Assembly: GCA_964350265.1 (NCBI GenBank)
Contig: CAYGJZ010000008.1
Coordinates: 1,097-65,096, forward strand
Reading direction: 5' to 3'
Origin: an uncultured Gammaproteobacteria bacterium
GTDB taxonomy: Bacteria; Pseudomonadota; Gammaproteobacteria; Arenicellales; CAJQKF01
Length of the DNA stretch: 64,000 bases
The notes beneath the pieces were generated by a model. That model was not told the origin of the DNA and ran no database searches. It was given only the letters and a program-made list of their open reading frames with translations. Numbering within the stretch: position 1 is the first letter of the stretch; the number at the start of each line of letters is the position of its first letter. Made by a program: the position numbers and the translations under genes. Positions 4,526-19,681 of the stretch are shown here, one piece after another.

Positions 4526-4947
4526 GGTAAGTCCAGTTCCAGTCGCAGCGTGCGCCCGGATACTCCGTGCACCGAGTCGCGCGCGTCAATGATCACCGAC
4601 GAAACGCCGTCGGGAATGTCGATCCCGGACAGGCTCCGGGTAAAGGGTTGTTCGTGCACGTGGGGATGCGCCAGGGTGCGCGTGCCCAGTACCCGGCCGT
4701 CGTCGGTCAGCACCCGCCAGCGGTCGGCATAGTGCTCCCAGCCGGTATCGGCATGGGCGAGGGTGACGTCGAAACGGCAGGTGCGCCGCTCGCAGTGAGC
4801 GCTGGCATCGACGATCTCGACGTCGTCGCCCACGGCAGCACCGGTGAACAGGAGGGGAAGAAGGAGAGGAAAGAGGGCGTGCGTGCGCGACGCGGGTCGC
4901 GCCGGGTCAGCGGGCTCGGTAGGTGATTCTGCCTTTGCTGAGATCAT
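4522..4947 (-). CDS. Small secreted hypothetical protein, translationally coupled to the desaturase
   Basis: A signal-peptide-like stretch ([17 protein letters not shown]) is followed by a His-rich domain of about 100 aa ([28 protein letters not shown]). Its stop overlaps the desaturase ATG (ATGA at 4522-4525). The start is uncertain because the ATG at 4947 overlaps the infA 3' end by 41 nt. Confidence 0.5.
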
Positions 4948-5125
4948 AGGGCGTCAATTGTACCGTGACGCGGTCGCCGCGAAGAATGCGGATGTAGTTC
5001 TTGCGCATCTTCCCGGAGATGTGTGCCGTCACCACGTGCCCGTTGTCGAGCTCGACGCGGAACTGCGTGTTGGGAAGGTTCTCCAGCACGGTACCTTCCA
5101 TCTCGATATGATCTTCTTTCGCCAC
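4907..5125 (-). CDS. infA: Translation initiation factor IF-1
   Basis: (V->M)[71 protein letters not shown] is 72 aa and near-identical to E. coli IF-1. The start is a GTG at 5125-5123, inside the spurious long track ORF 4907..5941. Confidence 0.93.
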
Positions 5126-5181
5126 AGGCTGCCCGGGGTCGTTGAAAAGCCCGGCAGTATAGTCGTTTTGCCCCGCGGATT

Positions 5182-5922
5182 CTAGGCATCCCGGGTGTCT
5201 CCGGCGACACCGTCGCCGGCCAGGTGGCGGGCCACGCGATCCAGGGCGCTGTCGTCCAGGCCCACCGCGCGCAGCTCGCGCAGGGTGTTGATCACGTAGT
5301 CCTGGTTGGGGCCCTTCTGCCCGTGGCAGCGGGAGATGCGCTCGGCCAGCTGCCGCTCGCACATCGGCGGCATGTACTGCGGGTGGTCGCGACGCACGCG
5401 GAAGGTGAGGGCGCGTACCCGGCGGGCATCGCCGAGGCAGGCGTTGACGAACACCGGCTTGTAGACGTTGCTGACCATCTCGCGGTCCTCGAGGTAGGCC
5501 ACCACCCCGGTCTTGTCCTCGTTGCGCACGCGGTAGGCATAGCCGGTACAGCTGCCGCCGCGATCCAGTCCCAGCACCAGCCCGGGGGCCTCCGGGGTGC
5601 CGCGGTAGCGCAGCGAACTGACGCACAGCCGCCGGTGCAGGCCGTAGACGGTGGCGACGTGGCGGCCGTCGTGGACGAAGCCGGGATTCCACATCAGCGA
5701 GCCGTAGCCGAAAATCCACAGCGGCTGGTCGTCGTCGGGAATCGGGATCAGGACGGAGGGCTTCACGCGGTCGATATCCACCAGGAGTACCCGCGCAGCC
5801 GCCGGCGGCGACCACGGGAGCGATGAACGGATTTTGGTAATATCCTCGCCCGGCGTCAATGGCACGAGCGCCGAGCACGCCCCGCCCGGGGCGGAAGACC
5901 AATAGGAACGGGGACATTCCAC
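5182..5922 (-). CDS. ChaC-like gamma-glutamylcyclotransferase
   Basis: [15 protein letters not shown] and [19 protein letters not shown] are ChaC family hallmarks. The start is uncertain. The ATG at 5922 would leave only 21 nt to the divergent gene. In-frame GTGs near 5781 and 5766 are alternatives. Confidence 0.75.
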
Positions 5923-5943
5923 GATGATGCGAGCGCGGCAACC

Positions 5944-7017
5944 ATGAGCATCGAACTGCCGTTACGCGGTATACGCGTGGTGGATTTCACCACCCTGCTG
6001 CCCGGCCCGCTGGCCACCTTGCTGCTGCGACGGGCCGGCGCCGAGGTGATCAAGATCGAGCCGGCCGGTGGCGAGGCCATGCGCACCCTGCTCGGCGACG
6101 ACGGCGCCGCCTTCGGCCTGCTCAACGGCGGCAAGCGCAGCGTCTGCGCCGACCTGAAGGACCCCCGGCAGCGGGACGCGGTGCGCGCGCTGTGCGGCGG
6201 CGCCGACGTGGTGCTGGAGCAGTTCCGTCCCGGCGTCATGGATCGCCTGGGACTGGGCTACGAGACCCTGCGCGACGGCCACGAAGACCTCGTCTACTGC
6301 GCCATCACCGGCTATGGCCAGCAGGGGCCGAACCGCGCCCTTGCCGGTCACGACATCAACTACCTGGCCGACGCCGGCCTGTTCAGCCTGTTCCGCGACG
6401 ACCACGGCAGCCCGCGACCACCGCCGGTGCAACTGGCCGACGTGGTCGGCGGTGCCTACCCGGCGTTTTCCAACATCCTGCTGGCGCTGCTGCAACGACT
6501 GCGGTCCGGCCGGGGCGCCTACCTCGACATCGCCATGACCCGCGCCCTGGCGGCGCTGTCGGTTTCCGCGGTGGCCGCCGCCGGCCAGTACGACCGACAG
6601 GCCGATCCGCTGTCGGGACAGGCCGCCAACTACCGCTGCTACCGCTGCGCCGACGGCGCCTGGTTGGCGGTGGGCGCCCTGGAACCGCGCTTCTTCTCCG
6701 CCCTGTGCCAGGCCCTGGCCCTGCCCGAATCCGTCGCCGCGGCCGATCCGGCGGATGCCGCGGTGGTCGATGTCCTGGCCAGGCGCTTCGCCGAGCAGCC
6801 GGCCTCGGCCTGGCTGCGGCGCCTGGCCGGGGTCGACGCCTGCTGCAATGCCGTGCGCAGCCTGCCCGAGGCGCTGGCGACGCTGGCCGACGACGGCCTG
6901 CGGGGGCTGCCGTTGCCGCTGGCACCGTGCTTCGACCGCGGCGACGAGGTGGTGCCGAGGCCCGGAGAGGCCAACGACGAGTTCCTGCAACTGGAAACGG
7001 AGCCGGTGGAGCCATGA
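5944..7017 (+). CDS. CoA-transferase family III (CaiB/BaiF-like)
   Basis: [40 protein letters not shown]...ITGYGQQGP...GHDINYLA is the typical family III layout. Confidence 0.85.
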
Positions 7018-7778
7018 TCGACGCCACCGAGCGCTTCGGCGGCCGGGTCGCCGACTACCAGCGCTACCGGCCTGGCTACCCGCCGGCCCTGGTGGACTGG
7101 CTGATCGATGCCGGGGCGCTGGCCGCCGGCGGCCACGTGGTCGATCTCGGCTGCGGCACCGGGTTGCTGTCGGCGGTGTTCCTCGACGCCGGCCTGCGCG
7201 TCACCGGCGTGGAGCCCAATGCCCCGATGCGCGAGGCGGGGCAGGCCTGGCTCGGCGCCCACCCGGCCTTCGACGCGGTGGCCGGCACCGCCGAGGCCAC
7301 CGGGCTGCCCGATCGCTGCTGCGACCTGGTGGTCGCCGGCCAGGCCTTTCACTGGTTCGATCCGGACGCCTGCCGCGCCGAGTGCCTGCGCATCGCGCAT
7401 GCCCCCGCCCACGCGGCGATGATCTGGAACGAGCGCAGGCTCGGCACGCCGTTCATGGACGACTACGAGGCCCTGCTCCTGGCCCACTGTCCGGAGTACC
7501 GCGCCATCATGGCCAGCCACGTCGACCAGGGAGCGCTGTCGCGCTTCTTCCAGGGGGATTTTCGGCGTCACTCGTTGCCCAATCACCAGCGGCTCGACTT
7601 CGCCGCCCTGCGCGGCCGGCTGATGTCGTCCTCCTATGCGCCGATGGCGGGTGCCCCCGGCCACGACGCCCTGGTGCAGGCACTCGCCGACCTGTTTTCC
7701 CGCCACGCGTTGGACGGATGCGTGCAGATCGATTACCGTACGGTCATTATTGTTGCCCCGTTGGTCCGGGCGAACTGA
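7014..7778 (+). CDS. Class I SAM-dependent methyltransferase
   Basis: Motif I VVDLGCGTGLLS is followed by LVVAGQAFHWFD. The ATG at 7014 overlaps the upstream stop (ATGA). The CDS lies inside track ORF 6192..7778. Confidence 0.8.
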   Translation: MIDATERFGGRVADYQRYRPGYPPALVDWLIDAGALAAGGHVVDLGCGTGLLSAVFLDAGLRVTGVEPNAPMREAGQAWLGAHPAFDAVAGTAEATGLPDRCCDLVVAGQAFHWFDPDACRAECLRIAHAPAHAAMIWNERRLGTPFMDDYEALLLAHCPEYRAIMASHVDQGALSRFFQGDFRRHSLPNHQRLDFAALRGRLMSSSYAPMAGAPGHDALVQALADLFSRHALDGCVQIDYRTVIIVAPLVRAN

Positions 7779-7787
7779 ACGCCAGCT

Positions 7788-7812
7788 GAACCGATTCCTG
7801 GCCGGTCACGAC
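7788..7812 (+). promoter_or_regulatory. Candidate ECF-type promoter (GAACCGAT-N13-CGAC) upstream of the four-gene envelope operon
   Basis: GAACC lies at 7788-7792, followed by 16 nt and then CGAC at 7809-7812. The site is about 70 nt upstream of the ATG at 7881. It has the same architecture and spacing as the motif upstream of the ECF sigma gene at 16934-16958. Confidence 0.3.
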
Positions 7813-7880
7813 ACAACCACGTCGGCACGCTGGAGGTGTGCCCACCCAAACGTGAACAACGAGACCAACGGAGGCATGCC

Positions 7881-9515
7881 ATGCTCAATGCTTCGACACC
7901 CGCCGCCGACCACCCGGGCCGGCGACTCCTTCCCCTCGCGGCCATGTTGTCGGCGGCGCTGCTCGCCCTGCCGGCGGCGGCCCAGACCGGCACCGTGAAC
8001 GTGGTGAAGCCGCTCAACCCGGCGCCCGTGAACAGCAAGGTGCGCAAGATCAACGTCGATCCCGACGCCGCCGCGGCGCTGCAGCCGGCCGCGCCGAAGG
8101 TGCGCACGCTGAAGGTCAAGGAGCCGGCGCCGGAGAAGGTGCGCAGGATCCCCACCGCGCCGGCCGTGCAGAAGCTGCCCGGCGCCGGTGACGCGGGCGG
8201 CGCGACCACCGCGAAGACCCCGGGCAGGGTTCCCGTCAACATCCCGGCGAAGACCGCCGTGGGGCAGCCCGGTGCCGGCGACAAGGCAGCGGTCGCCGCC
8301 GTGCCGAAACGGTTGCCGACGCCGGCCATTTCCACCTTGCCCACGGTGAAGCTGGCGCCGAAGTCCAGCCTCGCCCCGCGCCTGGACACGGCGCCTGCGA
8401 AGCGCCTCGTGGTGACGCCGCCACCGACCGGGAAGATCGCCGGCAGCACCCGCGAAGTGGCTGATACCAAGTCCCGCCTGCAACGGCTCCCGACGCGTAC
8501 CGCGCCGGCGGGCGTGGTCAGCCCCGGTAGCAACAACGGCACGCTGGGCAGCCTGGGCGCGGCGGGCGGTCTCGGCCGCGCGGCGCCGCTCGGCACCGCT
8601 CCCTCCGCCTTCGGCGCCGCACGGCTGAACCGCGCCGCCAACCGGGCCGATGTCCTGGAAGGCGGCAGCGGCATCTACGGGGATATCGCCGGCGAGGGTG
8701 GCCAGGTCACCTCCGACGGCATGACGGACGAGCAGGAGGCAGCGGATCTCGCCTCGGTGTTGGGCCAGGTCCCGCAAGGCGAGGGCACCACGGTGGACGA
8801 CTACCGCGGGTCGCACCAGGAGGGCACCGATGGCGACATGTTTTCCATCGACCGCCGCCAGACCGGGGCCGCCCAGGAAGCGGCCGACGCGCTGCTGCAG
8901 GCCGGGGTCCAGGCCGGCGAGGACGGCGACGGTGGCGGCAACGGCGGCGATGGCGGGGAAAACGTGATGAATTTCACGCTGGAGGAAAGCGAGCAGGATC
9001 GCGAGGCCGCCGGGCTGAACGACAACGAGATGTCCTTCAGCGCGGAGGAGGACGAACAGAACCAGGACGCGGCGGACGAAGAGCAGACCGCCGGCCAGCA
9101 GGAGGGCGACGAGACCATGTCCTTCGGCGAAGAGGAAGTGAGCGACGATACCGATGCCTGGGAAGAAGAGCAGCAGGCCGGGGACGATGACGGCGCCGAG
9201 GGCGACTGCGCGCCGGGCGACAGCGCCTGCACCGGCGACACCGGCATGAGCGTGGCCGGTGGTGAAGACGATCCGCCGCCGTCGGGGGACTGCGGCGAGA
9301 ACGGCCAGAACTGCGTCGGCGACCATGGCCCCGGTGGCGGCAGTTCCACGGTGCGCACCGCCGGCATGGGCGCTGGCGGGCCGCTGGCGGCGGACCCGGT
9401 GGCGGGTCTGAACCCGGCGGTGGACATCGTCGGCGACGGTGGCCTGGATGCCGAGCACCTCGACCGCGCGCGGCTGGATGCCATCCTGCAGGACCGCCTG
9501 GACCCGGGTCGCTGA
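7881..9515 (+). CDS. Secreted, largely disordered protein with a basic Pro/Ala/Lys-rich N-half and a very acidic C-half
   Basis: The ATG at 7881 has a GGAGG 7 nt upstream. The signal peptide is RRLLPLAAMLSAALLALPAAAQ. I recognise no family. Internal motif repeats are described in the findings. Confidence 0.7.
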   Translation: MLNASTPAADHPGRRLLPLAAMLSAALLALPAAAQTGTVNVVKPLNPAPVNSKVRKINVDPDAAAALQPAAPKVRTLKVKEPAPEKVRRIPTAPAVQKLPGAGDAGGATTAKTPGRVPVNIPAKTAVGQPGAGDKAAVAAVPKRLPTPAISTLPTVKLAPKSSLAPRLDTAPAKRLVVTPPPTGKIAGSTREVADTKSRLQRLPTRTAPAGVVSPGSNNGTLGSLGAAGGLGRAAPLGTAPSAFGAARLNRAANRADVLEGGSGIYGDIAGEGGQVTSDGMTDEQEAADLASVLGQVPQGEGTTVDDYRGSHQEGTDGDMFSIDRRQTGAAQEAADALLQAGVQAGEDGDGGGNGGDGGENVMNFTLEESEQDREAAGLNDNEMSFSAEEDEQNQDAADEEQTAGQQEGDETMSFGEEEVSDDTDAWEEEQQAGDDDGAEGDCAPGDSACTGDTGMSVAGGEDDPPPSGDCGENGQNCVGDHGPGGGSSTVRTAGMGAGGPLAADPVAGLNPAVDIVGDGGLDAEHLDRARLDAILQDRLDPGR

Positions 9516-9517
9516 GC

Positions 9518-11650
9518 ATGCCGATTTTGCGCTTGTTTTCGCCGCGCCGGCGCCGTGTTTTCGGCGCCGGCTGCCTGGCCCTGCTGGCCAGCCTGCCGCT
9601 GCTTGCCGACAACCCCGACTGGGTGCCGGCGCTGGCCATGGACGGCACCGTGCTGGCACGCGGCGACCAGCCGCTGCGCATCGCCCTGCCGGCGGACATG
9701 CCCGCCGAGAGCCTGGCCTGGCTGGCGCTGGAACTGGACGGGGTGGATGTCAGCGAGATCGTGGTGCTGGAACAGCAGGGCAGCACCCAGGTGGTCACGG
9801 TGACCCCGCCGCAGGCCCTGGCCCCCGGGGACCACGAACTGCGCCTGGTCGAGTACACGCCGGCCGGGGACATCCTCGAGCGCGGCCTGTGGACCCTGTC
9901 GCTGGCCGGCGCACCGGCGGTGGGCGAGGCGGCACGCCGCTTCTTCGCCGCCGAGTTCCTGCTCGACGGCTCCTACCGGGTGGCCGACAACGAGTACACC
10001 TCCTTCACCGATGCCGCCCACGGCCAGGGTGCGGCCACCATCCAGGCATCGTCGGTGGATGGCGGCTTCACCTCCGAGGCCTACGTCGCCCTGCTGTACG
10101 ATTCCTACGGCGCCGACATCGGCGTGGTCGAGGAAGACGAGGTGGTGGACGATCCCACCGCGGTGGACGCGCCGCTGTTTGCCGACCCGCGCGGTGGTCG
10201 CGAGGTGGAGCTGGCCGAGTACCGCCTGTCCACCCGCGGCCAGAACGTCTCGGCCATCGTCGGTCACCATGCGCCGGTGGCCGATGGCCTGCTGGTGCAG
10301 AACTTCCATCGGCGCGGCCTGTCGGTGACCGCGCGCAGCGACAACGATCGCCTGGTGGCGTCCGGCTTCGCCTTTCGCACCGAGCCGGTCAGTGGCTTCC
10401 GCTACGGTGCCGGCATCGGCGACAGCGAGCACCGCGTGGCCGGCAGCATGGTCTCGGTGAGCCCGCTCGCCGCCACCGATGCCCTGACCGTGTCGGCCAC
10501 CTACCTGCGTGGCGAGGGCGAGGACCATTCCGGACTCGGCGTGGCCGGCGACGACATCGAGCCGGAAGGCGACGGCTACAGCCTGGCGCTGGCCTCCACC
10601 GTGCTCGACCGTCGCCTGGAACTGCGCCTGGAACATGCCCAGACGCGCTACGACTTCGACGGCGGGCGCGGCGACTTCGACCGCACCGAGGACGATGCCG
10701 AGTCCTTCCTCGGCCTGTTCCACGTCTGGCGCGGACGCCAGCTCGGCGAGCGCCAGGCGAACTGGAACATCGGCTTCGAACGCAAGGAGATCGGCCTGTT
10801 CTTCCGCAGCCTGGCCAATCCCTCGCTGCCCTTCGACCGCAAGCTGGAACGGCTGTTCTCGGTGTTCAGCGTCGGTGGCCTGTCCATGCAGCTGCAAGTG
10901 GCGCGGGAGACCGACAACGTGCGCGAGGACGACACGCTGCCCACCCTGCACAACGAGCTCGCCTCCTTCCAGGTGTCGTGGTCGCCCTATCCGGAGGTGG
11001 ACGATTCCGGCCAGCCGGTGCGCCGCTGGTACGGCCAGCCGACCTTGAGCTTCGTCGGGCAGTACTCCGACCAGCTCCACCAGGACCTGCCCGCGGAACT
11101 GGCCGCGGCCGGCGCCGACCGCCAGGTCGCCACCTACCAGGGCGGCGTCTCCTTCCAGTACGAGCGCTTCTTCTGGGGCCTGAACTACGGCTACTCGGTG
11201 GAGAAGGACTTCGGCTTCTTCGAGGTCGACAACCGTCACCGTCTCACCGACCTGTCCATGCAGTGGCTGCCCGCCCAGCGGCTCAGCCTCGGCGCGCAGT
11301 TGCAGTACAACAGCGTCCACGGCGACGACGCCGAGCGCACCGCGCGCAGCTACCTGGCCGGTGTCGACGCCCGCCTGGCGGCCTTCGACGACCGTCTCAC
11401 CACCACCTTCAGCTACAGTGTGAACGAAAACGGTGCGCGCGACGACTCAATCGACGCGCGCTACGAAACCGCGAGCCTGCGCTTCGACTGGCTGCTGCGC
11501 CCGGCACGGGAAAACCGCCCGGCCTGGACGTTGTGGCTGCAGGGGGAGCGCCAGGTCTACGACGATGGTGTCAACCCGGAGTTCGACACCGACCCGTGGC
11601 AGGTCTTCGTCGGCGCGCGCATGGACTGGTCACTCGGCCGGTCCTGGTGA
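9518..11650 (+). CDS. Putative outer-membrane beta-barrel protein with an N-terminal soluble domain
   Basis: The signal peptide is RRRRVFGAGCLALLASLPLLA. Amphipathic beta-strand patterning alternates through residues ~250-710. The C-terminal beta-signal-like end is VFVGARMDWSLGRSW, with an aromatic terminal residue. The gene starts 2 nt after the upstream stop. Confidence 0.65.
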   Translation: MPILRLFSPRRRRVFGAGCLALLASLPLLADNPDWVPALAMDGTVLARGDQPLRIALPADMPAESLAWLALELDGVDVSEIVVLEQQGSTQVVTVTPPQALAPGDHELRLVEYTPAGDILERGLWTLSLAGAPAVGEAARRFFAAEFLLDGSYRVADNEYTSFTDAAHGQGAATIQASSVDGGFTSEAYVALLYDSYGADIGVVEEDEVVDDPTAVDAPLFADPRGGREVELAEYRLSTRGQNVSAIVGHHAPVADGLLVQNFHRRGLSVTARSDNDRLVASGFAFRTEPVSGFRYGAGIGDSEHRVAGSMVSVSPLAATDALTVSATYLRGEGEDHSGLGVAGDDIEPEGDGYSLALASTVLDRRLELRLEHAQTRYDFDGGRGDFDRTEDDAESFLGLFHVWRGRQLGERQANWNIGFERKEIGLFFRSLANPSLPFDRKLERLFSVFSVGGLSMQLQVARETDNVREDDTLPTLHNELASFQVSWSPYPEVDDSGQPVRRWYGQPTLSFVGQYSDQLHQDLPAELAAAGADRQVATYQGGVSFQYERFFWGLNYGYSVEKDFGFFEVDNRHRLTDLSMQWLPAQRLSLGAQLQYNSVHGDDAERTARSYLAGVDARLAAFDDRLTTTFSYSVNENGARDDSIDARYETASLRFDWLLRPARENRPAWTLWLQGERQVYDDGVNPEFDTDPWQVFVGARMDWSLGRSW

Positions 11651-11669
11651 TGACGCGGAGAATCGAACC

Positions 11670-13442
11670 ATGACTGCTCAAAAACTCGCCCGGGTGATCG
11701 CGCTGGCCGCCGCCGCGATGCTGCCCGCCGCCCATGCCATCGACGCCGTGGTCAGCCCGTCGTCGACCTCGGCCGCGGTGGATGCCACCGCGCTGGTCAA
11801 CCTGACCACCCCCGGCGCCGTGGACGGCTTCGACCAGAACACGCCCCTGCTCGAGGTGCTGGACCGGCGCAACATCCCGCTGCGCAGCGTGCTGGCGCCG
11901 GCCAGTTTCGCGCTCAGCTGGAACCCGGTGTTCGAAGGCATCGTGACCAGCTACACGTCGACCTCCTCCCAGGGCGTGCTGCGCCTGGACGGCGAGCAGG
12001 TGGGCGTGCGCAACCAGACCCTGTCGTCGTTCTGCATCAACCCCAACTGCGCGTTGGCCAGCGAGACGCTGACCCTGGCGCCGGCGGTCGGCGAGGACAT
12101 CGCGCGTACCCTGCTGCAGGGGATCACCCTGGGCGAAGCCGCCCGCGGCATCGGCAACCGCAGCGCGACGCTGTCGTATACCCGCGCCTTCAGCCACGCC
12201 GGCACATCGCCGGACGATCACGTGGCCACGGTGAACATCGCGCTGTCCTTGCGCCCCAACGTCAACGTGTCGCTGGCCGCCTTCCGCCTGCTGTCGGTAG
12301 AGGGGCGCAGTGGCTCGCTGTCGCTGCCGGCCGCGACCACCGCCCAGGTGCCGGTCAACCTGTCCTGGGAGGTGCGCTACGAACAGCTCGGCGCGCCGCC
12401 GCCGGTGACCCTGCGCTCGGACGCGGTGGAGGTGCTCGACGCCAATGGCCGTCTCCTGCAACGCATCCCGCGGCCGCTGACCCGCGCCCTGGCCCGTGGT
12501 CGCAGCCTCGCCGAGGCCTTCCCCGGCGCGGGTGCGGCCACCGGCAGCGAACAGTTCAACGATGTGCTCACCCTGCCGCCCTCGGTGGCCGCCGCGGCAG
12601 CCCGCGCCGGCACCTCGCGCATCGTGCTGCGACGCACCTTCACCGACGGCTCGACCACGCGCTCGGCGGACATCCCGCTGGTCGTCGGCAGCACCTCGAT
12701 GGCCGCCTTCCAGGTGACCCGTGTCGACCTGCGCTTCGAGGACGGTGCCCGGGCCGCGGTGGTGGACCGGAACCTGCCGTTGCACGCGGTGGCCGACATC
12801 AACTACCTCGGCAGCGGCCAGTTGCAGGCGACCTGGGAGTGGGCGCCGGTGTCCGGCGGCGGCGCGCCGCTGTTCCGCCCGCTGCCGCCGTCGACGCCCC
12901 TGGTGGCCAGCGCGCCGCCCACCGACTTCGACACCCGCTACAGCCGCACCCTGGTGCGCGAGTTTCTCAACAACCGCCAGCGCATCCGCCTGGTCAGCCC
13001 GGTGCTGCCCACCACCGAGACCGGCGGCGTGCTGCTGCGCCTGACCATCGGTGCCCCCGACGTCGCCTTCCAGTTGCCGGTGATTCGCTACTACGTCGGC
13101 GGTGACGGCGCCCCGCCGGTGCTGGACACGGCGGGCCTGGCGCCGTTGTCGCTGCTGGCCCCGACAGGCAATGCCGATGTCCGCCGGGACACCCTGTTCC
13201 GCTGGCTGCCGGTGGCCGGGGCGACCGCCTACCGGATGGAATGCTACGACGACCTGATGATGTCGGCCGGCATGCGCACCGGGCAGGTGGTGCCGCTGGA
13301 GCGTGCCCAGCTGGCGGTCAGCGCGCTGGTCATGGAGCACCTGGAAGAGGGCGCCGGCTACTGGTGCCGGGTGGTGGCCATCGGCGGTGGCGGGCTGCCC
13401 AGCGCCGCCAGCGAGCTGGTCCGGCTCACCGCGCGCCGGTAG
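11670..13442 (+). CDS. Secreted hypothetical protein (590 aa)
   Basis: The ATG at 11670 lies inside track ORF 11433..13442. The signal peptide is ARVIALAAAAMLPAAHA. The composition is beta-rich and no motif is recognisable. The gene starts 19 nt after the barrel gene. Confidence 0.65.
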   Translation: MTAQKLARVIALAAAAMLPAAHAIDAVVSPSSTSAAVDATALVNLTTPGAVDGFDQNTPLLEVLDRRNIPLRSVLAPASFALSWNPVFEGIVTSYTSTSSQGVLRLDGEQVGVRNQTLSSFCINPNCALASETLTLAPAVGEDIARTLLQGITLGEAARGIGNRSATLSYTRAFSHAGTSPDDHVATVNIALSLRPNVNVSLAAFRLLSVEGRSGSLSLPAATTAQVPVNLSWEVRYEQLGAPPPVTLRSDAVEVLDANGRLLQRIPRPLTRALARGRSLAEAFPGAGAATGSEQFNDVLTLPPSVAAAAARAGTSRIVLRRTFTDGSTTRSADIPLVVGSTSMAAFQVTRVDLRFEDGARAAVVDRNLPLHAVADINYLGSGQLQATWEWAPVSGGGAPLFRPLPPSTPLVASAPPTDFDTRYSRTLVREFLNNRQRIRLVSPVLPTTETGGVLLRLTIGAPDVAFQLPVIRYYVGGDGAPPVLDTAGLAPLSLLAPTGNADVRRDTLFRWLPVAGATAYRMECYDDLMMSAGMRTGQVVPLERAQLAVSALVMEHLEEGAGYWCRVVAIGGGGLPSAASELVRLTARR

Positions 13443-13454
13443 CCGCGGGGTCCG

Positions 13455-15122
13455 GTGATGAAGGCCGTCTTTCCCGGTGCCCGGGCGGTATCGGCGGGTC
13501 TTGCGCTGCTGCTGGTCATGCCCTGGCCGGCCGCCCTGGCCGCCGGTACCGTCGCTCCGAGCGCGAGCCCCGCCGCCGGTTCGGGGTCGCTGGCGGTGCC
13601 CAAGGTGACGCCCAAGGTGACGCCGAAGGTCACGCCGCATGCCATCGTGCTGAAGCCCGGGGTGGTGCTGCCGACGGACAAGTTCACCGTGCCGCTGGCC
13701 GGACCGGACAAGACCCCCGAGCCGGCCAGCTATCCCAACGGCGGCCAGACCACCAAGCCCGCCGCGGACGCCTTCATCGCCAACCCGCCCGGCGACGACG
13801 AGCCGGACGACCCGCCCCCCGGCGACCCGCCGCCGGCACCGGATGCCGCGCCGGAACCCCGGCCGCCGTCCACCGCGCCGTCGCCGGTGGACAGGCCGGT
13901 CGACGCGCCGGCCATTGCCGAGCCCCCGGCCAGGTCGCCGGCGCCCACCCGGCGGCCGCCGCCGTCGGCGGGCACGTTGCTGGGCGGCGCCCTGCCGGCG
14001 CCCGGCGCCGCGCCTGCGGCGGGCGTGGCTGGCCATGCCGACGACGCCGGCTACGAGCCCGGCCAGCTGGTCTTCATGACCGCCGGCATCGACGACGCGC
14101 GCACGGTGGCCAACCGCCTGCGCGGCGAGGGCTACCGGCTGCGATCACGCTCCACCCTGGGCAGTCTCGGCCTGGTGATGAGCGTGCTCGCCACCCCGAA
14201 CGGGGTCGACCCGGTGGTGGCGGCCGAGCAGCTGGCGGCGCGCTTCCCCGAGGTGGTGGTGGATGCCAACCACCGCTACCGGCTGCAGGCCGGTCGCACC
14301 TATGCCAACCGCCTGATCGGCTGGGAGGCCGCCGCGCCCTGTCTTGCCGGCGTGCCGGTGGGCATGCTGGACACCCCGGTGGATGCTGGCGACCCGGTGC
14401 TGGCCGAGGCCCGCGTGGCGGCACTGGACGTGCTTCCCGGCGGCATACGGCGACCCGATGCCAGCCACGGCACCGCGGTGGCCGCCATCCTCGCCGGTGG
14501 TCGGCGGGACGGCTTTTCCGGCCTGTTTGCCGGTGGCGAGTTGGTGGCGGTAAACGTCTTCCGCCTGCGCGACGGCGAGCAGGTGGACAGCACCGCTGCG
14601 TGGCTGGTGCAGGGCCTCGACGCGGTGGCCGGCCGCGGGGTGTCGGTGGTCAACGTCTCCCTCGGCGGTGACCACAACCGCCTGCTCGACCTCGCCGTGC
14701 AGGCCCTGCTGGCGCGCGGCATCCCGCTGGTGGCGGCGGCCGGCAACGGCGGACACGATGCCGCCCCGGTCTATCCGGCGGCCTATCCGGGGGTGATCGC
14801 GGTCACTGCCATCGATGCCCGTGGCCGGGTGTTTCGCGATGCCGCCCGCGGTCCCCACGTGGACTTCGCGGCGCCCGGGGTGGACGTGTTCGTGGCCGTG
14901 GCCGACGGTCGCTACGTCAGCGGCACGTCATTCGCCGCCCCCTTCGTCAGCGCCGCGGTGGCCGCGGTGCGCGCCCGCCGCGAGGGACTGACGCCCTCGC
15001 AGATCGTCGACTACCTGGCCGGCCTGAGCCGTGATCTCGGCGAGCCCGGCCCGGACCCGGTCTACGGTCGCGGCATGCCCGACCTCGCCGGCCACTGCGC
15101 CGCCCTCGAGCGCATGCGCTGA
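13455..15122 (+). CDS. Secreted subtilisin-like (S8) serine peptidase with a Pro-rich linker and a propeptide-like domain
   Basis: The signal peptide is AVSAGLALLLVMPWPAALA. The catalytic triad contexts are VGMLDTPVD (Asp), SHGTAVAAILAG (His) and SGTSFAAPFVSAAVA (Ser), with the oxyanion region AAAGNGG. Confidence 0.85.
   Translation: MMKAVFPGARAVSAGLALLLVMPWPAALAAGTVAPSASPAAGSGSLAVPKVTPKVTPKVTPHAIVLKPGVVLPTDKFTVPLAGPDKTPEPASYPNGGQTTKPAADAFIANPPGDDEPDDPPPGDPPPAPDAAPEPRPPSTAPSPVDRPVDAPAIAEPPARSPAPTRRPPPSAGTLLGGALPAPGAAPAAGVAGHADDAGYEPGQLVFMTAGIDDARTVANRLRGEGYRLRSRSTLGSLGLVMSVLATPNGVDPVVAAEQLAARFPEVVVDANHRYRLQAGRTYANRLIGWEAAAPCLAGVPVGMLDTPVDAGDPVLAEARVAALDVLPGGIRRPDASHGTAVAAILAGGRRDGFSGLFAGGELVAVNVFRLRDGEQVDSTAAWLVQGLDAVAGRGVSVVNVSLGGDHNRLLDLAVQALLARGIPLVAAAGNGGHDAAPVYPAAYPGVIAVTAIDARGRVFRDAARGPHVDFAAPGVDVFVAVADGRYVSGTSFAAPFVSAAVAAVRARREGLTPSQIVDYLAGLSRDLGEPGPDPVYGRGMPDLAGHCAALERMR
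13599..13634 (+). repeat. In-frame 12-nt tandem repeat, three copies, encoding (PKVT)x3
   Basis: The copies are cccaaggtgacg, cccaaggtgacg and ccgaaggtcacg, read directly. The repeat lies inside the S8 peptidase N-terminal region (VPKVTPKVTPKVTPH). Confidence 0.85.
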
Positions 15123-15125
15123 GGG

Positions 15126-16913
15126 CTACAGCGGCCAGGCCCAGAGAATGGCGGGCACGCCCACCGCCACGATGAGCAGTTCCAGCGGCAGCCCCATGCG
15201 CCAGTAGTCGCCGAAGCGGTAGCCGCCGGGACCCAGGATCAGGGTGTTGTTTTTGTGGCCGATGGGGGTGAGAAAGGCACAGGACGCGGACACCGCCACC
15301 GCCATCAGGAAGGGATCGGCGCTGACCTCGAGGCCGGCGGCCAGGCTGATCGCCACCGGCGCGGCGATGATGGTGGTGGCGGTATTGTTGAGCACGTCGG
15401 ACAGCGTCATGGTGGTGATCATGAAGATCACCAGCACCGTCAGCGGACCGTGGCTGCCCGCCCCCTCGAGCAGCAGGTCGGCCAGCAACTGGGTGCCGCC
15501 GGACGCCTCCAGCGCCGTGCCCAGCGGGATCATCGAGCCGAGCAGCACGATCACCGGCCATTCCACCGAGTCGTACACCTGCCGGCCACGCACCACGCCG
15601 AGGGCGACGAAGGCGATGCAGGCCAGCGCCAGCGCCACCGGCAGGTAGACGAGCCCGGTGCTGGCGGCGACGATGGCGGCGATGAAGATGCCCACGGTGA
15701 TGCCGGCCTTGCTGCGCTTGGCCATTTCCAGCTCGCGATCGGCCAGCGGCAGGGCGCCGATCCACTCGACGATCTCGTAGACCCGTTCGGCCGGACCGAG
15801 CAGCAGCAGCACGTCGCCGGCATGCAGGCTGACGCGGCGGATCTGCTCGCGGAAGCGCCGGCCGCGACGGGAGACGCCGAGCAGGGTGATGCCGTAGCGG
15901 TCGAGCAGGTGCATGGAACGGGCGCTGCGGCCCTCGATCCGCGCCCCCGGCCGCACCACCGCCTCCACCAGCACCTGTTCACCGGCCAGTTCCTCGCCAC
16001 TGTGCTTGGGCGCGTCCTCGTCGGCCTCGTAGGCGAGGCCGGCTTCGCCGGCAAAGGCATCGATGGACTTGGCGTCGGCCTCGATCACCAGGGTGTCGCC
16101 GGCGATGATCTCCACCCGGCGGGCGGCCCCGGGCATGCGGCGTTCGTCGCGCACCAGGCCGAGGATGGCGACACCGTGGGACTCGCACTGCTCGTCCAGG
16201 TCGCTGACCTTCTTGCCGATGGCCGAGGAATCCTCGTTCACGCGCACCTCGGCGATGTAGTCGCCGAGGTCGAACAGTTCCCGGGCCGAGTCGGCCTCGC
16301 GCCGCCCGCGCGGGATCAGTCGCCAGCCCACCAGGGTGACGTAGGCCACCCCGGCCACCGCGCAGGCAATGCCCACCGGCGCGAAGTCGAACATGCCGTA
16401 GGCCTCGCCCAGGGCACTTTCGCGGAAGGAGGCGACGATGATGTTCGGCGGCGTGCCGATCAGCGTGATCATGCCGCCGAGGATGGAGGCGAAGGACAGC
16501 GGCATCAGGGTCAGTGCCGGGCTGCGGCCGGCCTTCTTCGCTGCCTGCATGTCCACCGGCATCAACAGTGCCAGCGCGGCGACGTTGTTCATCACCGCCG
16601 ACAGCGCCGCCGCCACCGTGGACATGACGCCGATGTGGGCGAACAGGGAGCTGGAGGCGCGCATCACCCAGCGGGCGATGAGCTCGACCACGCCGGAGTT
16701 GGACAGTGCGCGGGAGACGATCAGCACCAGGGCGATGATCACCGTGGCCGGGTGGCCAAAGCCGGCGAAGGCCTGGTCCACCGGCACCACGCCGAGGATG
16801 ACGGCCAGGATCAAGGCGCCGAAGGCGGTCAGGTCATAGCGCACCTTGCCCCAGATGAGCATGGCGAAGACCGCCACCAGCAGGGCGAACAACAGGGTCT
16901 GGTCGGAGGGCAT
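15126..16913 (-). CDS. SLC13/DASS-family anion permease with two central TrkA-C (RCK_C) domains
   Basis: The 595-aa product has two polytopic membrane halves flanking a soluble insert (LFDLGDYIAEVRVNEDSSAIGKKVSDL ... RPGARIEGRSARSMHLLDRYGITLLGVSRRG). This layout is typical of the family. Confidence 0.8.
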   Translation of the reverse strand: MPSDQTLLFALLVAVFAMLIWGKVRYDLTAFGALILAVILGVVPVDQAFAGFGHPATVIIALVLIVSRALSNSGVVELIARWVMRASSSLFAHIGVMSTVAAALSAVMNNVAALALLMPVDMQAAKKAGRSPALTLMPLSFASILGGMITLIGTPPNIIVASFRESALGEAYGMFDFAPVGIACAVAGVAYVTLVGWRLIPRGRREADSARELFDLGDYIAEVRVNEDSSAIGKKVSDLDEQCESHGVAILGLVRDERRMPGAARRVEIIAGDTLVIEADAKSIDAFAGEAGLAYEADEDAPKHSGEELAGEQVLVEAVVRPGARIEGRSARSMHLLDRYGITLLGVSRRGRRFREQIRRVSLHAGDVLLLLGPAERVYEIVEWIGALPLADRELEMAKRSKAGITVGIFIAAIVAASTGLVYLPVALALACIAFVALGVVRGRQVYDSVEWPVIVLLGSMIPLGTALEASGGTQLLADLLLEGAGSHGPLTVLVIFMITTMTLSDVLNNTATTIIAAPVAISLAAGLEVSADPFLMAVAVSASCAFLTPIGHKNNTLILGPGGYRFGDYWRMGLPLELLIVAVGVPAILWAWPL

Positions 16914-16933
16914 GGGCAGGACACGGTGACGCG

Positions 16934-16958
16934 GAAGCGATCACTATAGAATCCCGTC
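16934..16958 (+). promoter_or_regulatory. Candidate autoregulated ECF-type promoter (GAAGCGAT-N13-CGTC)
   Basis: GAAGC lies at 16934-16938, followed by 16 nt and then CGTC at 16955-16958. The site is about 68 nt upstream of the sigma-factor ATG. A sigma70-like TAGAAT overlaps the spacer, so assignment is ambiguous. Confidence 0.3.
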
Positions 16959-17025
16959 GCGTTGATTTACAAGGACGTCCGGGTAACAATTCCGCCCGTC
17001 CCGCCACCGCAACCCACCAAGCATC

Positions 17026-17574
17026 ATGTCCGCACCGGACCCAGACATCGAGTTGATCGAACGCATCGCGCGCGGCGATTCCGAGGCGATGACGCGCTTC
17101 TACCAGGCCCACGAGAAGCGCGTCTATGCCTTCGCGCTCCGCAAATTGAACGATCCGCACGCCGCCGCCGACATAGTGGTCGAGGCCATGATGGCGGTGT
17201 GGAACGGTGCCGGTTCCTTCCAGGGTGGATCCAAGGTGACCACCTGGCTGTTCGGCATCGCTCACCGCAAGGCGGTGGACCTGGTGCGCAAGCGCAGCCG
17301 CCACGAGGCCGACGAGCTGGATTTCGACGTGGTCGACGACGACGGGGACTTCACCCGCGCGCTGGCCGCGGCGGAAGACGGCGAACAGGTGCGCCGTTGC
17401 CTCGCGGGACTGCCCGAAGCGCAGCGGGAGATCGTCCACCTGGCCTTCTTCGAGGACTTGTCCTACCCGGAGATCGCCAACCTGGTGGACTGCCCGGAGG
17501 GAACGGTGAAAACGCGCATATTCCACGCCAAGAAGAAGTTGCGCCTGTGCCTGGAACGGTTGATGCGAGGATGA
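17026..17574 (+). CDS. ECF (sigma-70 family, group 4) RNA polymerase sigma factor
   Basis: Region 2 reads FYQAHEKRVYAFALRKLNDPHAAADIVVEAMMAVW. Region 4 reads EIVHLAFFEDLSYPEIANLVDCPEGTVKTRIFHAKKKL. Confidence 0.9.
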   Translation: MSAPDPDIELIERIARGDSEAMTRFYQAHEKRVYAFALRKLNDPHAAADIVVEAMMAVWNGAGSFQGGSKVTTWLFGIAHRKAVDLVRKRSRHEADELDFDVVDDDGDFTRALAAAEDGEQVRRCLAGLPEAQREIVHLAFFEDLSYPEIANLVDCPEGTVKTRIFHAKKKLRLCLERLMRG

Positions 17575-17578
17575 CGCG

Positions 17579-18184
17579 ATGAGCGAGACGAAACGAGAGG
17601 ACGACGACCTGGAGCAACTGCTGCCCTGGTACGTGAACGGCACCCTCACCGCCGAGGAGCACCAGGCGGTGGAGGCCTACCTCGCGCGCAGCGAGTCGGC
17701 GCGCACCCAGGCGGCCTTCCTGGCGCGGGTGCGCGAGGCGGTGCGCGACCAGGAACACGGCTCCCCCGGGGCCTTCGGCCTGGCCCGCCTGAAGACGGCG
17801 ATGGCCGCCGGCGAGGCCGGCCGGGATGCGAAGCCGGCGCCGGCGAAGTCGTCGCCGATGACGCAGCGCTGGCGCATGGTGGCGGCGGCGGCGGGGGTGG
17901 TGGTGATGATCCAGGCCGGCCTGCTGTTCGAGTCCTGGCGGGAGCCTGCCTACCAGCCGCTGGGAGCGGCGGACACGGCGCCGATCCAGGTCAGCTTCCG
18001 CGACGAGGCCAGCGCCGGGCAGATCGGTGCCCTGCTGGCGGAACTCGGTGCCAGCATCCGCTCGGGGCCGGGATCTCTCGGCATCTACCGCCTGGCCCTG
18101 GAAGAGGGCGCGGCGTCGGTGGACGAGGTGGTCGCCGCGCTGCGCGCCGCGGGCATCGTCGAGGACGTGCGCGCCGATCCGTAG
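17579..18184 (+). CDS. Anti-sigma factor (single-pass membrane protein)
   Basis: The gene starts 4 nt after the sigma gene. It has an N-terminal LLPWYVNGTLTAEEHQAVEAYLA anti-sigma helix motif and one TM helix (WRMVAAAAGVVVMIQAGLLF). A periplasmic domain of about 90 aa follows. Confidence 0.75.
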   Translation: MSETKREDDDLEQLLPWYVNGTLTAEEHQAVEAYLARSESARTQAAFLARVREAVRDQEHGSPGAFGLARLKTAMAAGEAGRDAKPAPAKSSPMTQRWRMVAAAAGVVVMIQAGLLFESWREPAYQPLGAADTAPIQVSFRDEASAGQIGALLAELGASIRSGPGSLGIYRLALEEGAASVDEVVAALRAAGIVEDVRADP

Positions 18185-18206
18185 ACGGTCGGCGCGGGCG
18201 ACGTCT

Positions 18207-19142
18207 TCAGCGGAAGGTGTAGCCGAAGGCCTCGCGAAAGCGCTGTTCGAACTCGTCCAGGCTGACGCGGTGGTTCTGGGTGCCGTGGTGGCCGATCTTG
18301 ATCGAACCCATCAGCGAAGCGATGCGGCCGGTGGTCGGCCAGTCCAGGCCCTCGGCGAGGCCGTACAGCAGGCCGCCACGGAAGGCGTCGCCGCAGCCGG
18401 TGGGGTCCACCGCGCTGGCCGCGGGCACCGGCTCGATCTCGGTGGTCCTGCCGCCGGCATGCACCACCGCGCCGCGGGCGCCCAGGGTGACGATCAGCGC
18501 ACCCACCCGGGCGGCGATCTGCTCCGCCGACAGGCCGGTCTTCTCGCACAGCATCTTCGACTCGTAGTCGTTGACAATCACCCACTCGGCGGCATCGATG
18601 AAGTTGCCGAGCTCGTCGCCGCTGAACATCGGCAGTCCCTGGCCGGGGTCGAAGACGAAGGGAATGCCGCGGGCACGGAAGTCGGCGGCATGCTGCAGCA
18701 TGGCGTCGCGGCCGTCGGGGGCGACGATGCCGAGGGTCACGCCGTCGGCGTCGCCGACGTGGTTGTGGTGTGCCCGGGACATTGCGCCGGGATGGAAGGC
18801 GATGATCTGGTTGTCATCCAGGTCCGTGGTGATGAAGGCCTGGGCGGTGTAGGTGTCGGCCAGCTCGGTGACGAAGCGGTCGCTGATGTTCAGCTCGTGC
18901 AGGCGTGCGCGGTAGGGGGCGAAGTCGTGGCCCACCGTGCCCATGGGCAGGGCGTCGCCGCCGAGCAGGTTCAGGTTGTAGGCGATGTTGCCGGCGCAGC
19001 CGCCGAACTCCCGGCGCATGTCCGGCACCATGAAGCAGACGTTGAGGATGTGCACCTGCTCGGGAATGATGTGGTTCTTGAACGAGTCGGGAAACACCAT
19101 GATGGTGTCATAGGCGAACGAGCCGCAGATCAGCGTGGACAA
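18207..19142 (-). CDS. PfkB-family carbohydrate/nucleoside kinase (adenosine-kinase-like)
   Basis: GGCAGNIAYNLNLLG is PfkB signature 1 and DPTGCGDAFRGGLLYG is signature 2. Confidence 0.85.
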   Translation of the reverse strand: MSTLICGSFAYDTIMVFPDSFKNHIIPEQVHILNVCFMVPDMRREFGGCAGNIAYNLNLLGGDALPMGTVGHDFAPYRARLHELNISDRFVTELADTYTAQAFITTDLDDNQIIAFHPGAMSRAHHNHVGDADGVTLGIVAPDGRDAMLQHAADFRARGIPFVFDPGQGLPMFSGDELGNFIDAAEWVIVNDYESKMLCEKTGLSAEQIAARVGALIVTLGARGAVVHAGGRTTEIEPVPAASAVDPTGCGDAFRGGLLYGLAEGLDWPTTGRIASLMGSIKIGHHGTQNHRVSLDEFEQRFREAFGYTFR

Positions 19143-19207
19143 GTCAGTCGTCTCCAGGTCGGGCGGGGAGCCCCGCCGGGGCGGGGCGGAAATCGGGTCG
19201 CGGCGGG

Positions 19208-19681
19208 CTACTTGTGCTTGAGGCGGAAAATGCCTTCGTCGAGTTCACCGGACCACGAGCACTTGCCGGACTCGCGGAAGCCGCGGCACACGCCGTACAG
19301 GTACAGCGAGTGGTCGTCGATGGCGAAGCCGGCCTGCTCGGCCACCTGCTTCTGGCGTTCCTCGATGGTGCGGTCGTAGAACTCGAACACCTTGCCGCAC
19401 TCCAGGCAGACCATGTGGTCGTGGTGGGACTCGTCGTTGAGTTCGAACACCGAGCGGCCGCCTTCGAAGTTGTGGCGGATCACCAGACCCGCACCCTCGA
19501 ACTGGGTGAGCACCCGGTACACCGTGGCCAGGCCGATCTCCTCGCCGGATTCGAGCAGGACCTTGTACACGTCCTCGGCGGACAGGTGGCGGACCTGCGT
19601 GTCTTCGAGGATCTGCAGGATCTTCAGCCTGGGCTGGGTCGTTTTCAGACCTGCTTTTTTCAGGTCAGTGCTGAATTCCAT
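19208..19681 (-). CDS. fur: Ferric uptake regulator
   Basis: LKKAGLKTTQPRLKILQIL...HLSAEDVYKVL...IGLATVYRVLTQFEGAGLV...HHDHMVCLECGKVFEF is the canonical Fur pattern. Confidence 0.93.
   Translation of the reverse strand: MEFSTDLKKAGLKTTQPRLKILQILEDTQVRHLSAEDVYKVLLESGEEIGLATVYRVLTQFEGAGLVIRHNFEGGRSVFELNDESHHDHMVCLECGKVFEFYDRTIEERQKQVAEQAGFAIDDHSLYLYGVCRGFRESGKCSWSGELDEGIFRLKHK

Follow-up and report, generated by a model that had tools for sequence, protein, structure and literature searches.

The subject of this analysis is a group of envelope and regulatory genes in a stretch of 64,000 nucleotides (nt) from an uncultured gammaproteobacterium (Arenicellales, CAJQKF01; assembly GCA_964350265.1, contig CAYGJZ010000008.1, positions 1,097 to 65,096), which at its full length is called the window below. 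The group comprises genes for a large outer-membrane beta-barrel (g2), a secreted beta-sandwich protein (g3), a subtilisin-like protease of family S8 (g4), and a sigma factor of the extracytoplasmic function (ECF) type with its membrane anti-sigma factor. It is very probable that these five genes form one functional module, and within it the triad of sigma factor, anti-sigma factor and S8 protease is a tighter unit than the association of the barrel with g3. As to function, we incline, by a small degree, towards an ECF signalling module with a dedicated subtilase that would act on a prodomain-like domain of the anti-sigma factor, and with the barrel and g3 as its outer-membrane arm and main target. 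The five genes, together with g1, which precedes the barrel gene, are the following (lengths in amino acids, aa):

7881..9515, + strand: g1, secreted protein of 544 aa with a basic Pro/Ala/Lys-rich N-terminal half, a very acidic Gly/Asp/Glu-rich C-terminal half and four Cys
9518..11650, + strand: g2, 710 aa, predicted outer-membrane beta-barrel of ~26 strands with a signal peptide and an N-terminal periplasmic beta-sandwich (~37-130)
11670..13442, + strand: g3, secreted protein of 590 aa with tandem immunoglobulin (Ig)/fibronectin type III (fn3)/macroglobulin (MG)-like beta-sandwich domains, the C-terminal one of fibronectin type III
13455..15122, + strand: g4, 555 aa, periplasmic S8 protease in which a signal peptide, a Pro-rich linker of ~150 aa and an N-domain of ~85 aa, possibly a prodomain, precede the catalytic domain (299-540)
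17026..17574, + strand: ECF sigma factor, 182 aa (Pfam Sigma70_r2, Sigma70_r4_2, Sigma70_ECF)
17579..18184, + strand: anti-sigma factor, 201 aa, with a ChrR/RslA-like domain, one transmembrane helix (~97-117) and a periplasmic C-domain of ~80 aa that ends the protein

The five genes recur together in distant genomes. We examined the neighbourhoods of barrel homologues and 19 genome loci, with local tblastn and clustering of open reading frames (ORFs), and a metagenome scan seeded with the anti-sigma motif returned at least 489 relatives, the best 80 loci of which were analysed with local hidden Markov models (HMMs) together with two further loci, L027 and L028 (L numbers are given where loci have to be told apart). 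Members of the barrel family were found in 24 loci, those of the g3 family in 21, and the loci without g3 are contigs which break off at the barrel gene or inside it; wherever a contig runs past the barrel gene, g3 adjoins it. The sigma factor, an anti-sigma factor of ~190-200 aa and the S8 protease accompany barrel and g3 in 12 loci. In distant relatives the genes are ordered barrel, g3, sigma, anti-sigma, S8 (L001 from an Arenicellales metagenome-assembled genome (MAG), L005, L006, L016, L020 and L025), and in the lineage of the window barrel, g3, S8, sigma, anti-sigma (L007). The cultured alphaproteobacterium Pelagibius sp. CAU 1746 (L027) has the order barrel, g3, g3, sigma, anti-sigma, S8; its module lies at JBDOQT010000001.1 2888544-2909176, and the two g3 paralogues measure 407 and 402 aa. 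The five genes are contiguous in L027 and in the six distant loci just named, as well as in many loci from metagenomes. Altogether the module was seen in Gamma- and Alphaproteobacteria, at ~100 loci, nearly all of them MAGs.

An earlier note on this DNA had described g1-g4 as a four-gene envelope operon lying between unrelated housekeeping genes. Such a description of the surroundings is incomplete, as an ECF sigma/anti-sigma pair of the same module follows 1.9 kb downstream, beyond the region which that note covered. We assign the pair to the module because both genes are orthologous to pairs embedded in the distant operons: the sigma factor of the window is 50-75% and the anti-sigma factor 39-58% identical to the counterparts in L001-L007. 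In the window the pair is separated from the S8 gene by an insertion which is not part of the module:

15126..16913, - strand: CitMHS transporter with TrkA_C domains

The window, L002/L003 and L004 all have the CitMHS gene at this place, where it separates S8 from sigma and is read from the opposite strand; in L008 it follows S8, and the contig ends inside it. L007 has no CitMHS gene, and there sigma and anti-sigma stand directly after S8. In the window g4 and the CitMHS gene converge, with stop codons 3 nt apart and no terminator-like site between them. A scan for terminators and promoters found no terminator after g4, and an Rfam scan of 7000-18600 gave zero matches.

The S8 protease is linked to the anti-sigma factor and not to the barrel. 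In the metagenome set sigma lies upstream of anti-sigma in every locus with enough flank (65/65), and in 48 of 51 loci anti-sigma is followed by S8, whether the barrel is present or not. Barrel and g3 stand upstream in just 12 of the 29 triad loci with enough flank, and those loci in which barrel and g3 occur without sigma and anti-sigma (L012, L013, L018, L021 and others) are also devoid of S8. Thus, the protease tracks the anti-sigma gene, and not the barrel, g3 or a putative cargo.

This linkage bears on the idea, close to that of the earlier note, of a secretion or surface-assembly machine, in which g1 or other first genes would be the cargo, the barrel the pore, g3 an accessory and S8 the maturation protease, with the ECF pair responsible for expression only. 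The barrel is big enough to hold or pass a polypeptide, as MtrB or LptD, variable signal-peptide proteins stand beside it behind one and the same promoter motif (g1, NosD-like in L006, MopE-like in L016/L019, CARDB/DUF11-like in L001), and subtilases are known to mature secreted proteins, e.g., SphB1 acting on FHA. However, S8 follows the anti-sigma factor in loci without barrel and g3 and is absent where these two stand alone, so the part assigned to the protease by the earlier note, that of a partner in cargo maturation, is not supported. Moreover, the cargo is not conserved, no shared sorting signal was apparent when the N- and C-terminal ends of variable proteins were inspected, no energy-coupling or chaperone component was found by Pfam and NCBIfam, and the prodomain-like anti-sigma domain described below would be left unexplained. 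We consider such an exporter rather unlikely, although for barrel and g3 by themselves a part in secretion or surface display is conceivable.

Some triads without a barrel (L075:5882-9256, L077:3206-6580 and L088:5424-9232; also L045, L078 and L098) carry another pair. One member, of ~575-600 aa, has a C-terminus resembling outer-membrane proteins (OMPs), ...ISHQF, and no Pfam match; the other, of ~520-540 aa, is a secreted protein with a FecR domain, and both are preceded by TGAACC-N16-CGAC. Since these triads carry a different OMP-like/FecR pair, the outer-membrane arms of the system seem to be interchangeable.

We turn to the two proteins on which the proposed mechanism depends. The sigma and anti-sigma factors of the window are an ECF sigma factor and a membrane anti-sigma factor of the ChrR/RslA/zf-HC2 type. 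The zf-HC2 domain was recognised in 19 of 25 anti-sigma homologues, and the anti-sigma profile matches ChrR (2q1z_B, E 0.006, at the N-terminus) and RslA (3hug_B). In an alignment of 11 orthologues a hydrophobic stretch, WRxxAAAAxxVVxxQ, is conserved, and no His/Cys zinc ligands are visible. The C-domain resembles a subtilase prodomain: PF22148 (Fervidolysin_NPro-like) matches it in 16 of the 25 homologues, with a best E of 4.7e-7, and in the window protein at residues 138-195 with E 0.0017. The alignment displays a beta-alpha-beta-beta-alpha-beta order which finishes at the C-terminus. Subtilase/prodomain pairs (MEROPS I9, PF22148) are close to this arrangement, as the ~80-aa end of the anti-sigma factor matches PF22148 and the C-domain stops right after its last strand, like a cleaved prodomain with its C-terminus in the active site. 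The differences are that here the domain sits on a separate polypeptide, a membrane anti-sigma factor, that S8 keeps an N-domain of its own, and that the two domains are not significantly similar. BLASTP aligned the C-domain with the S8 N-domain over 42 residues (E 0.035), and we claim no paralogy from this.

The protease itself is well defined. PF00082 (Peptidase_S8) covers residues 299-540 of g4 with E 2.6e-28 and 99.6 bits against a cut-off of 21.8, the Asp/His/Ser triad is intact, and the motifs DT[PG], HGT and GTS as well as a Cys pair are kept in 11 orthologues; the closest solved relative is subtilisin BPN'. A mycosin assignment (TIGR03921) was rejected on the score (126.6 bits, cut-off 278.75), the missing C-terminal hydrophobic segment and the proteobacterial context. 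In the alignment of S8 orthologues the linker is variable, and a conserved N-domain of ~85 aa precedes the catalytic domain; in the S8 proteins as a group, 80-120 residues without a family assignment stand before the catalytic domain, with a prodomain-like beta-alpha-beta-beta-alpha-beta pattern. Pfam recognised no prodomain in nine triad S8 proteins, PF22148 touched two of 11 isolated S8 N-domains weakly (E ~0.05), and a search of the N-domain against Protein Data Bank (PDB) sequences gave nothing meaningful. Of the claim that g4 is an S8 protease with a propeptide, the S8 part is borne out by triad and profile; the propeptide (~195-285) is suggested by position and pattern only, being unseen by Pfam.

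We lean slightly towards the view that, as these sequence comparisons suggest, S8 and the anti-sigma C-domain act as a protease/prodomain-like pair. The same data admit another interpretation, namely that S8 is a quality-control or remodelling output of the regulon, while the anti-sigma domain inhibits it, so keeping it silent at the inner membrane, or serves as a trans-acting foldase instead of being an activating substrate, the signal arriving by another route. Prodomains of family I9 are potent inhibitors and folding catalysts of their own subtilases, the triad S8 proteins have no prodomain recognised by Pfam whereas the anti-sigma factor has one, and anti-sigma and S8 are co-transcribed behind the promoter motif in 17 loci. 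On the other hand, the S8 proteins keep 80-120 residues with a prodomain-like pattern before the catalytic domain, and in characterised systems with a membrane-spanning ECF anti-sigma factor, such as RseA and RsiW, the periplasmic domains in contact with proteases get cleaved. We judge an inhibitor or foldase role without activation to be clearly unlikely.

A promoter motif marks the genes of the module. By a two-block search upstream of barrel genes we derived the motif TGAAC...CGAC, and then counted its occurrences in 105 non-duplicate loci (999,432 nt) in comparison to block shuffles. The form TGAAC[CT]-N16-CGAC occurs at 117 sites, 101 on the module strand and 16 on the other, the shuffles giving a mean of 3.6 and a maximum of 6, i.e. 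an enrichment of ~30-fold; with spacers of 12-15 or 17-21 nt there were 0-15 matches. The next ORF downstream is g3 at 28 sites, anti-sigma at 17, sigma at 12, the barrel at 5, S8 at 1 and another gene at 53. These 53 are mostly signal-peptide proteins of variable families, such as CARDB-like and DUF11-like (L001), NosD-like (L006) and MopE-like proteins (L016) and g1 (window and L008). The motif stands ahead of the barrel or of the 'first gene' in L002, L004, L007, L008, L029, L036 and L043. A GAAC-type -35 element, a CG-containing -10 element and a spacer of 16 nt are typical of ECF promoters. As the motif is confined to these loci, the sigma factor of the module is its obvious candidate reader, and from the sequence evidence we regard this assignment as probable. 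The putative regulatory sites of the window are:

7787..7812, + strand: putative ECF-type promoter TGAACC-N16-CGAC, 69 nt before the g1 ATG
11421..11446, + strand: internal motif TGAACG-N16-CGAC, in the 3' end of g2, 249 nt before g3
16962..16990, + strand: candidate sigma-70-like promoter with the sequence TTGATT-N16-TAACAAT, ahead of the ECF sigma gene

The first of them falls in the 102-nt gap between the stop of a methyltransferase gene (7778) and the g1 ATG, and it is the sole exact match to the motif in the window, 0.30 being expected. With the relaxed pattern there were 4 matches (0.57 expected), among them the internal motif. Such internal copies are common: of 37 barrel genes, 24 have TGAAC-N17-CGAC within their final 420 nt, for the most part 209-242 nt ahead of the 3' end, and those g3-preceding sites that were checked are within the 3' end of the barrel gene. 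It is missing at the barrel 3' end in six sigma-less loci (L013, L017, L019, L021, L022 and L024). The copy at 11421..11446 may be an internal promoter from which the sigma factor transcribes g3 and g4. Two further relaxed matches, both TGAACG-N16-CGAC, are probably due to chance, one inside the sigma gene (17147-17172, + strand) and one upstream of a UPF0149 gene (24324-24349, - strand; the gene is at 23529-24086, minus).

The site upstream of the sigma gene is of another kind. The block GCGTTGATTTACAAGGnCGTCCGGGTAACAAT is conserved there in the window, L002 and L004; the conserved upstream block is also seen as GCGTTGATTTACAAGG...TAACAAT, with a sigma-70-type look. In L007, which has no CitMHS gene, the hexamers TTGATT-N16-TAACAT are kept with a different spacer. 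From this we infer that 16962..16990 would be the housekeeping-type promoter of the sigma gene; it is under the threshold of the consensus scan. TTGTAA-N18-TATAGT at 16943-16972 (- strand) faces the CitMHS gene, and the sigma and CitMHS promoters may be divergent, as the sites are on opposite strands.

In L001 (OZ244194.1) at least four CARDB-like paralogues at 528-9698 (- strand) each have the motif just upstream, and so, downstream in 17049-22094 (+ strand), has a 940-aa DUF11-like protein, with a related 693-aa protein behind it; this arrangement suggests that secreted beta-sandwich proteins make up a large regulon at the locus. Secreted proteins of the MopE copper-binding type (PF11617) are encoded just upstream of the barrel at L019:4012-5713 and L016:6790-8163, in L016 with the motif.

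The outer-membrane arm consists of proteins without an annotated family. Pfam and NCBIfam gave no match at E<=1 for g1, g2 and g3. In HMM searches of the kind that the earlier note had called for, here with Pfam and NCBIfam, the catalytic S8 domain of g4 was the only one recognised among g1-g4; the anti-phage defence models of PADLOC returned a generic 'subtilase' match for g4 only, the other five proteins remaining blank. The proposal that the operon has no recognisable system identity was borne out for g2, g3 and g4, for which the profile, PDB-sequence and PADLOC searches found neither a curated family nor a described system. All three are envelope proteins, as had been proposed.

An AlphaFold2 model of g2, built from an alignment of 18 sequences (mean predicted local distance difference test, pLDDT, 77.7), shows a signal helix, a beta-sandwich at ~37-130 and ~26 long transmembrane strands; the protein ends in ...LGRSW. 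In a Foldseek search of the PDB the model retrieved generic large barrels only (SlpA, ushers, TonB-dependent transporters and MtrB), the best being MtrB (6r2q_B, 26 strands) with a template modelling (TM) score of 0.45, and a sequence profile found no relatives in the PDB. The family is nevertheless large: although a word-indexed search gave just 18 homologues, an exhaustive profile search collected 1095 clusters of 50% identity at E<=1e-3 and 357 at <=1e-30. On 50 diverse members Pfam gave sporadic generic OMP matches only. Some of the most conserved residues of these 50 lie in the N-domain (D74, D77, G104, H106 and W125). Others of the family belong to three motifs in residues 249-269, 429-440 and 464-468, namely GHH...F.RRG.S, FFRSLANPSLPFD and E.DNV, and all of these residues may form a site for a ligand, a metal or a partner.

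The AlphaFold2 model of g3, from an alignment of only 6 sequences (pLDDT 68.7), is a chain of beta-sandwich domains. Foldseek related it to the MG domains of complement C3/C4 and alpha-2-macroglobulin and to Ig/fn3 arrays, all with TM<0.2, and its profile matched PDB sequences of titin and fibronectin fn3 (E 7.8e-6 and 0.003) in the C-terminal domain only. Membership of the alpha-2-macroglobulin family was rejected, since TM<0.2 indicates a generic fold class. By eye, g3 has no CXXCH haem motif, and it is not a lipoprotein.

Several known outer-membrane systems were compared with this arm. The MtrB-MtrA and LptD-LptE pairs are alike in barrel size and in having an obligate co-encoded soluble partner; in contrast to them, g2 and g3 show no sequence relation to either pair, g3 has no CXXCH and is no lipoprotein, and no LptD/OstA domains were found. 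An MtrAB porin-cytochrome complex was therefore dismissed despite the similar barrel size, g3 being devoid of CXXCH. Chaperone-usher pili were rejected in the absence of Pfam matches, as FimD and PapC appear only as generic barrels (TM 0.26-0.34) and g3 matches MG/fn3/Ig arrays and not PapD. For two-partner secretion neither POTRA, ShlB nor haemagglutination-activity domains are present, and the g2 barrel is far larger than that of TpsB (16 strands). Curli and Fap amyloid export were discarded because none of the four proteins has a corresponding Pfam or NCBIfam match.

We also asked whether the first four ORFs are genuine genes and whether g1 belongs with the others. The window has a G+C content of ~70%, so that long spurious ORFs are plentiful in it. 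The four + strand ORFs with gaps of 2, 19 and 12 nt were confirmed as described. All of them carry a coding signature, with G+C at third codon positions (GC3) of 0.89-0.93 against 0.47-0.58 at second positions (GC2), which matches the flanking housekeeping genes; Shine-Dalgarno sequences (GGAGG/GGAGA) precede g1 and g3, and 2 nt separate the g1 stop from the g2 start. The Sec-type N-termini reported for g1-g4 were also found on inspection of the sequence by eye, no predictor being run: each contains basic and hydrophobic stretches as well as an Ala-X-Ala-like site, and a lipobox Cys is absent from all four.

The g1 protein is highly polarised in charge, with a net charge of +22 over residues 36-250 (rich in A, P and K) and -61 over residues 251-544 (rich in G, D and E). 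Its GC3 is 0.886, and the coding pattern is held in every 150-nt block. The sole full-length homologue, in L008, has the same position and 40% identity (E 4e-75); the blocks conserved between the two are mostly in the C-terminal half, and the last ~45 residues are strongly kept. L002 has an 85-aa ORF remnant whose end resembles the g1 C-terminus. A tblastn search with g1 gave no match in L001-L007, the remaining clustered loci are also without it, and so are relatives with a barrel of 53-69% identity. Where relatives have no g1, a leader of 290-430 nt lies between the promoter motif and the barrel gene. With just one full-length homologue elsewhere, g1 is a lineage-specific add-on: as judged from these sequence features, it is a genuine gene and an accessory of its lineage. 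The four-gene module put forward before thus holds in part, as g2, g3 and g4 co-occur across many genomes, but g1 is not part of the conserved unit. In the acidic region of g1 the motif M-[NS]-F-x-x-E-E occurs three times (window 8930-9160, residues ~360-420), and there are two Cys pairs, CAPGDSAC and CGENGQNC; the L008 homologue keeps both pairs and two of the three motif copies.

It could be argued that there is no functional unit at all and that the genes are chance neighbours, or g1 a spurious ORF, given that long spurious ORFs are common at 70% GC, that many ORFs overlap, and that g1 is of low complexity and belongs to no family. However, the five genes are linked across Gamma- and Alphaproteobacteria at ~100 loci, and g1 has a coding GC3 and a Shine-Dalgarno sequence, and its homologue, which is 40% identical, occupies the corresponding place. 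The comparative data exclude a chance juxtaposition, and we regard the absence of any functional unit as highly improbable.

A close analogue of the module is cell-surface signalling by FecA, FecR and FecI, in which a TonB-dependent transducer acts through an anti-sigma factor on an ECF sigma factor, with Prc as the site-1 and RseP as the site-2 protease. The likeness lies in a barrel with an extra N-terminal periplasmic domain, encoded beside a single-pass anti-sigma factor and its ECF sigma factor, in the putative own promoter of the sigma/anti-sigma pair together with the barrel operon as presumed sigma target, and in proteolysis of the anti-sigma factor as the presumed switch; related triads, moreover, carry a separate FecR-domain protein. 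In contrast to FecA, g2 has no Plug, TonB_dep_Rec or STN match at E<=1 and ~26 instead of 22 strands; the anti-sigma factor has, unlike FecR, no FecR domain and carries the subtilase-prodomain-like domain instead. The module encodes a dedicated S8 protease where Fec uses the general protease Prc, and it has an obligate multi-Ig partner, g3. The assignment of g2 as a FecA-type TonB-dependent transducer was rejected on the missing Plug, TonB_dep_Rec and STN domains, the ~26 strands and the anti-sigma factor without FecR.

RseA-DegS-RseP, which controls sigma-E by regulated intramembrane proteolysis, and likewise RsiW/PrsW and RsiV/signal peptidase, share with the module an anti-sigma domain of class I, a single transmembrane helix and a periplasmic part which a site-1 serine protease would take off. 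Here, however, the site-1 candidate is an S8 protease and not the S1 protease DegS, PrsW or signal peptidase, its gene adjoins that of the anti-sigma factor, and recognition would presumably proceed via a prodomain mimic. On our reading, the module would work by a known principle, the regulated proteolysis of an ECF anti-sigma factor, but with outer-membrane parts that are uncharacterised.

In a literature search no triad of anti-sigma and S8 and no barrel family of the g2 type was found described; the supplements of the ECF reclassification (PMC7826278) might catalogue the sigma group and its context. The nearest case is ECF54 of Actinobacteria, with subtilase, carboxypeptidase or CHAT genes in its context, for which signalling without an anti-sigma factor, by degradation of the sigma factor itself, was proposed (PMC8999054). 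Both have an ECF sigma factor with a subtilase gene in a conserved neighbourhood; in contrast to ECF54, our module always has a membrane anti-sigma factor (65/65) and its hosts are Proteobacteria, and membership of ECF54 is ruled out on these two grounds.

The mechanism we favour would operate as follows. The sigma and anti-sigma factors would be made from their own housekeeping-type promoter, and the anti-sigma factor would tether its partner to the inner membrane. The periplasmic C-domain of the anti-sigma factor, with its putative subtilase-prodomain fold, would be both docking site and substrate of the periplasmic S8 protease g4, which would degrade it in the way that subtilases break down the prodomains of their own. 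What is left of the anti-sigma factor would then be cleared by intramembrane (site-2) proteolysis, and the sigma factor so freed would transcribe g1-g2-g3-g4 from 7787-7812 and probably g3-g4 from the 11421 copy. The barrel with its periplasmic N-domain and g3 would be the outer-membrane arm; the sigma factor would act chiefly on their genes, and as a sensor they would probably gate the protease as well, with g1 a lineage-specific secreted member of the regulon placed between promoter and barrel. That barrel and g3 are both output and sensor is suggested by the layout, which resembles FecIRA in having a housekeeping-driven sigma/anti-sigma pair and a barrel operon as the sigma target. Taken by itself, the part of the proposal in which barrel and g3 gate the signal seems doubtful.

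A number of points weigh against this mechanism. The fold of the anti-sigma C-domain is called from Pfam matches, and in the window protein the PF22148 score of 19.1 bits is under the gathering cut-off of 21 bits; hhalign of the C-domain with the S8 N-domain is not significant (P ~0.08), and a PDB sequence search with the C-domain retrieves no prodomain. A sensing role for barrel and g3 is an analogy with FecA-type systems. The motif is assigned to the sigma factor by association only, and protein constraint may contribute to its internal copies, as they overlap with conserved Asn and Asp codons. In the window S8 lies inside the operon thought to depend on the sigma factor; if S8 activates sigma, the result is positive feedback, for which no brake has been identified. 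Finally, the analysis of the best 80 of at least 489 relatives makes for a sample biased to close relatives.

Taken further, the proposal would amount to a new class of trans-envelope signalling, with a prodomain decoy as sensor on the anti-sigma factor, a co-encoded subtilase which is held by this decoy and destroys it, and a barrel and multi-Ig protein as sensor or display. We see such a class as possible, with doubt still prevailing. If it is real, release of the sigma factor would go hand in hand with the protease's maturation or activation, because the subtilase would be both bound to the decoy and destroying it.

ECF sigma factors are among the commonest signalling devices of bacteria. 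To our knowledge, only few mechanisms of their activation are understood, and for most ECF groups the site-1 protease is unknown. If the reading proposed here is true, a self-encoded subtilase beside a prodomain-like anti-sigma sensor would be a new and testable route of ECF activation, and it may offer synthetic biology a compact, possibly orthogonal, protease-gated switch. Experiments are feasible, since Pelagibius sp. CAU 1746, a carrier and candidate host, is in culture. The large barrel family, whose ~1100 clusters come mostly from uncultured Proteobacteria and had no annotation, is placed by the module in a context of regulation, with a regulon predicted to have a sharply defined promoter. 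The system would then be widespread in uncultured marine and soil Proteobacteria, as indicated by at least 489 anti-sigma relatives and ~1100 barrel clusters.

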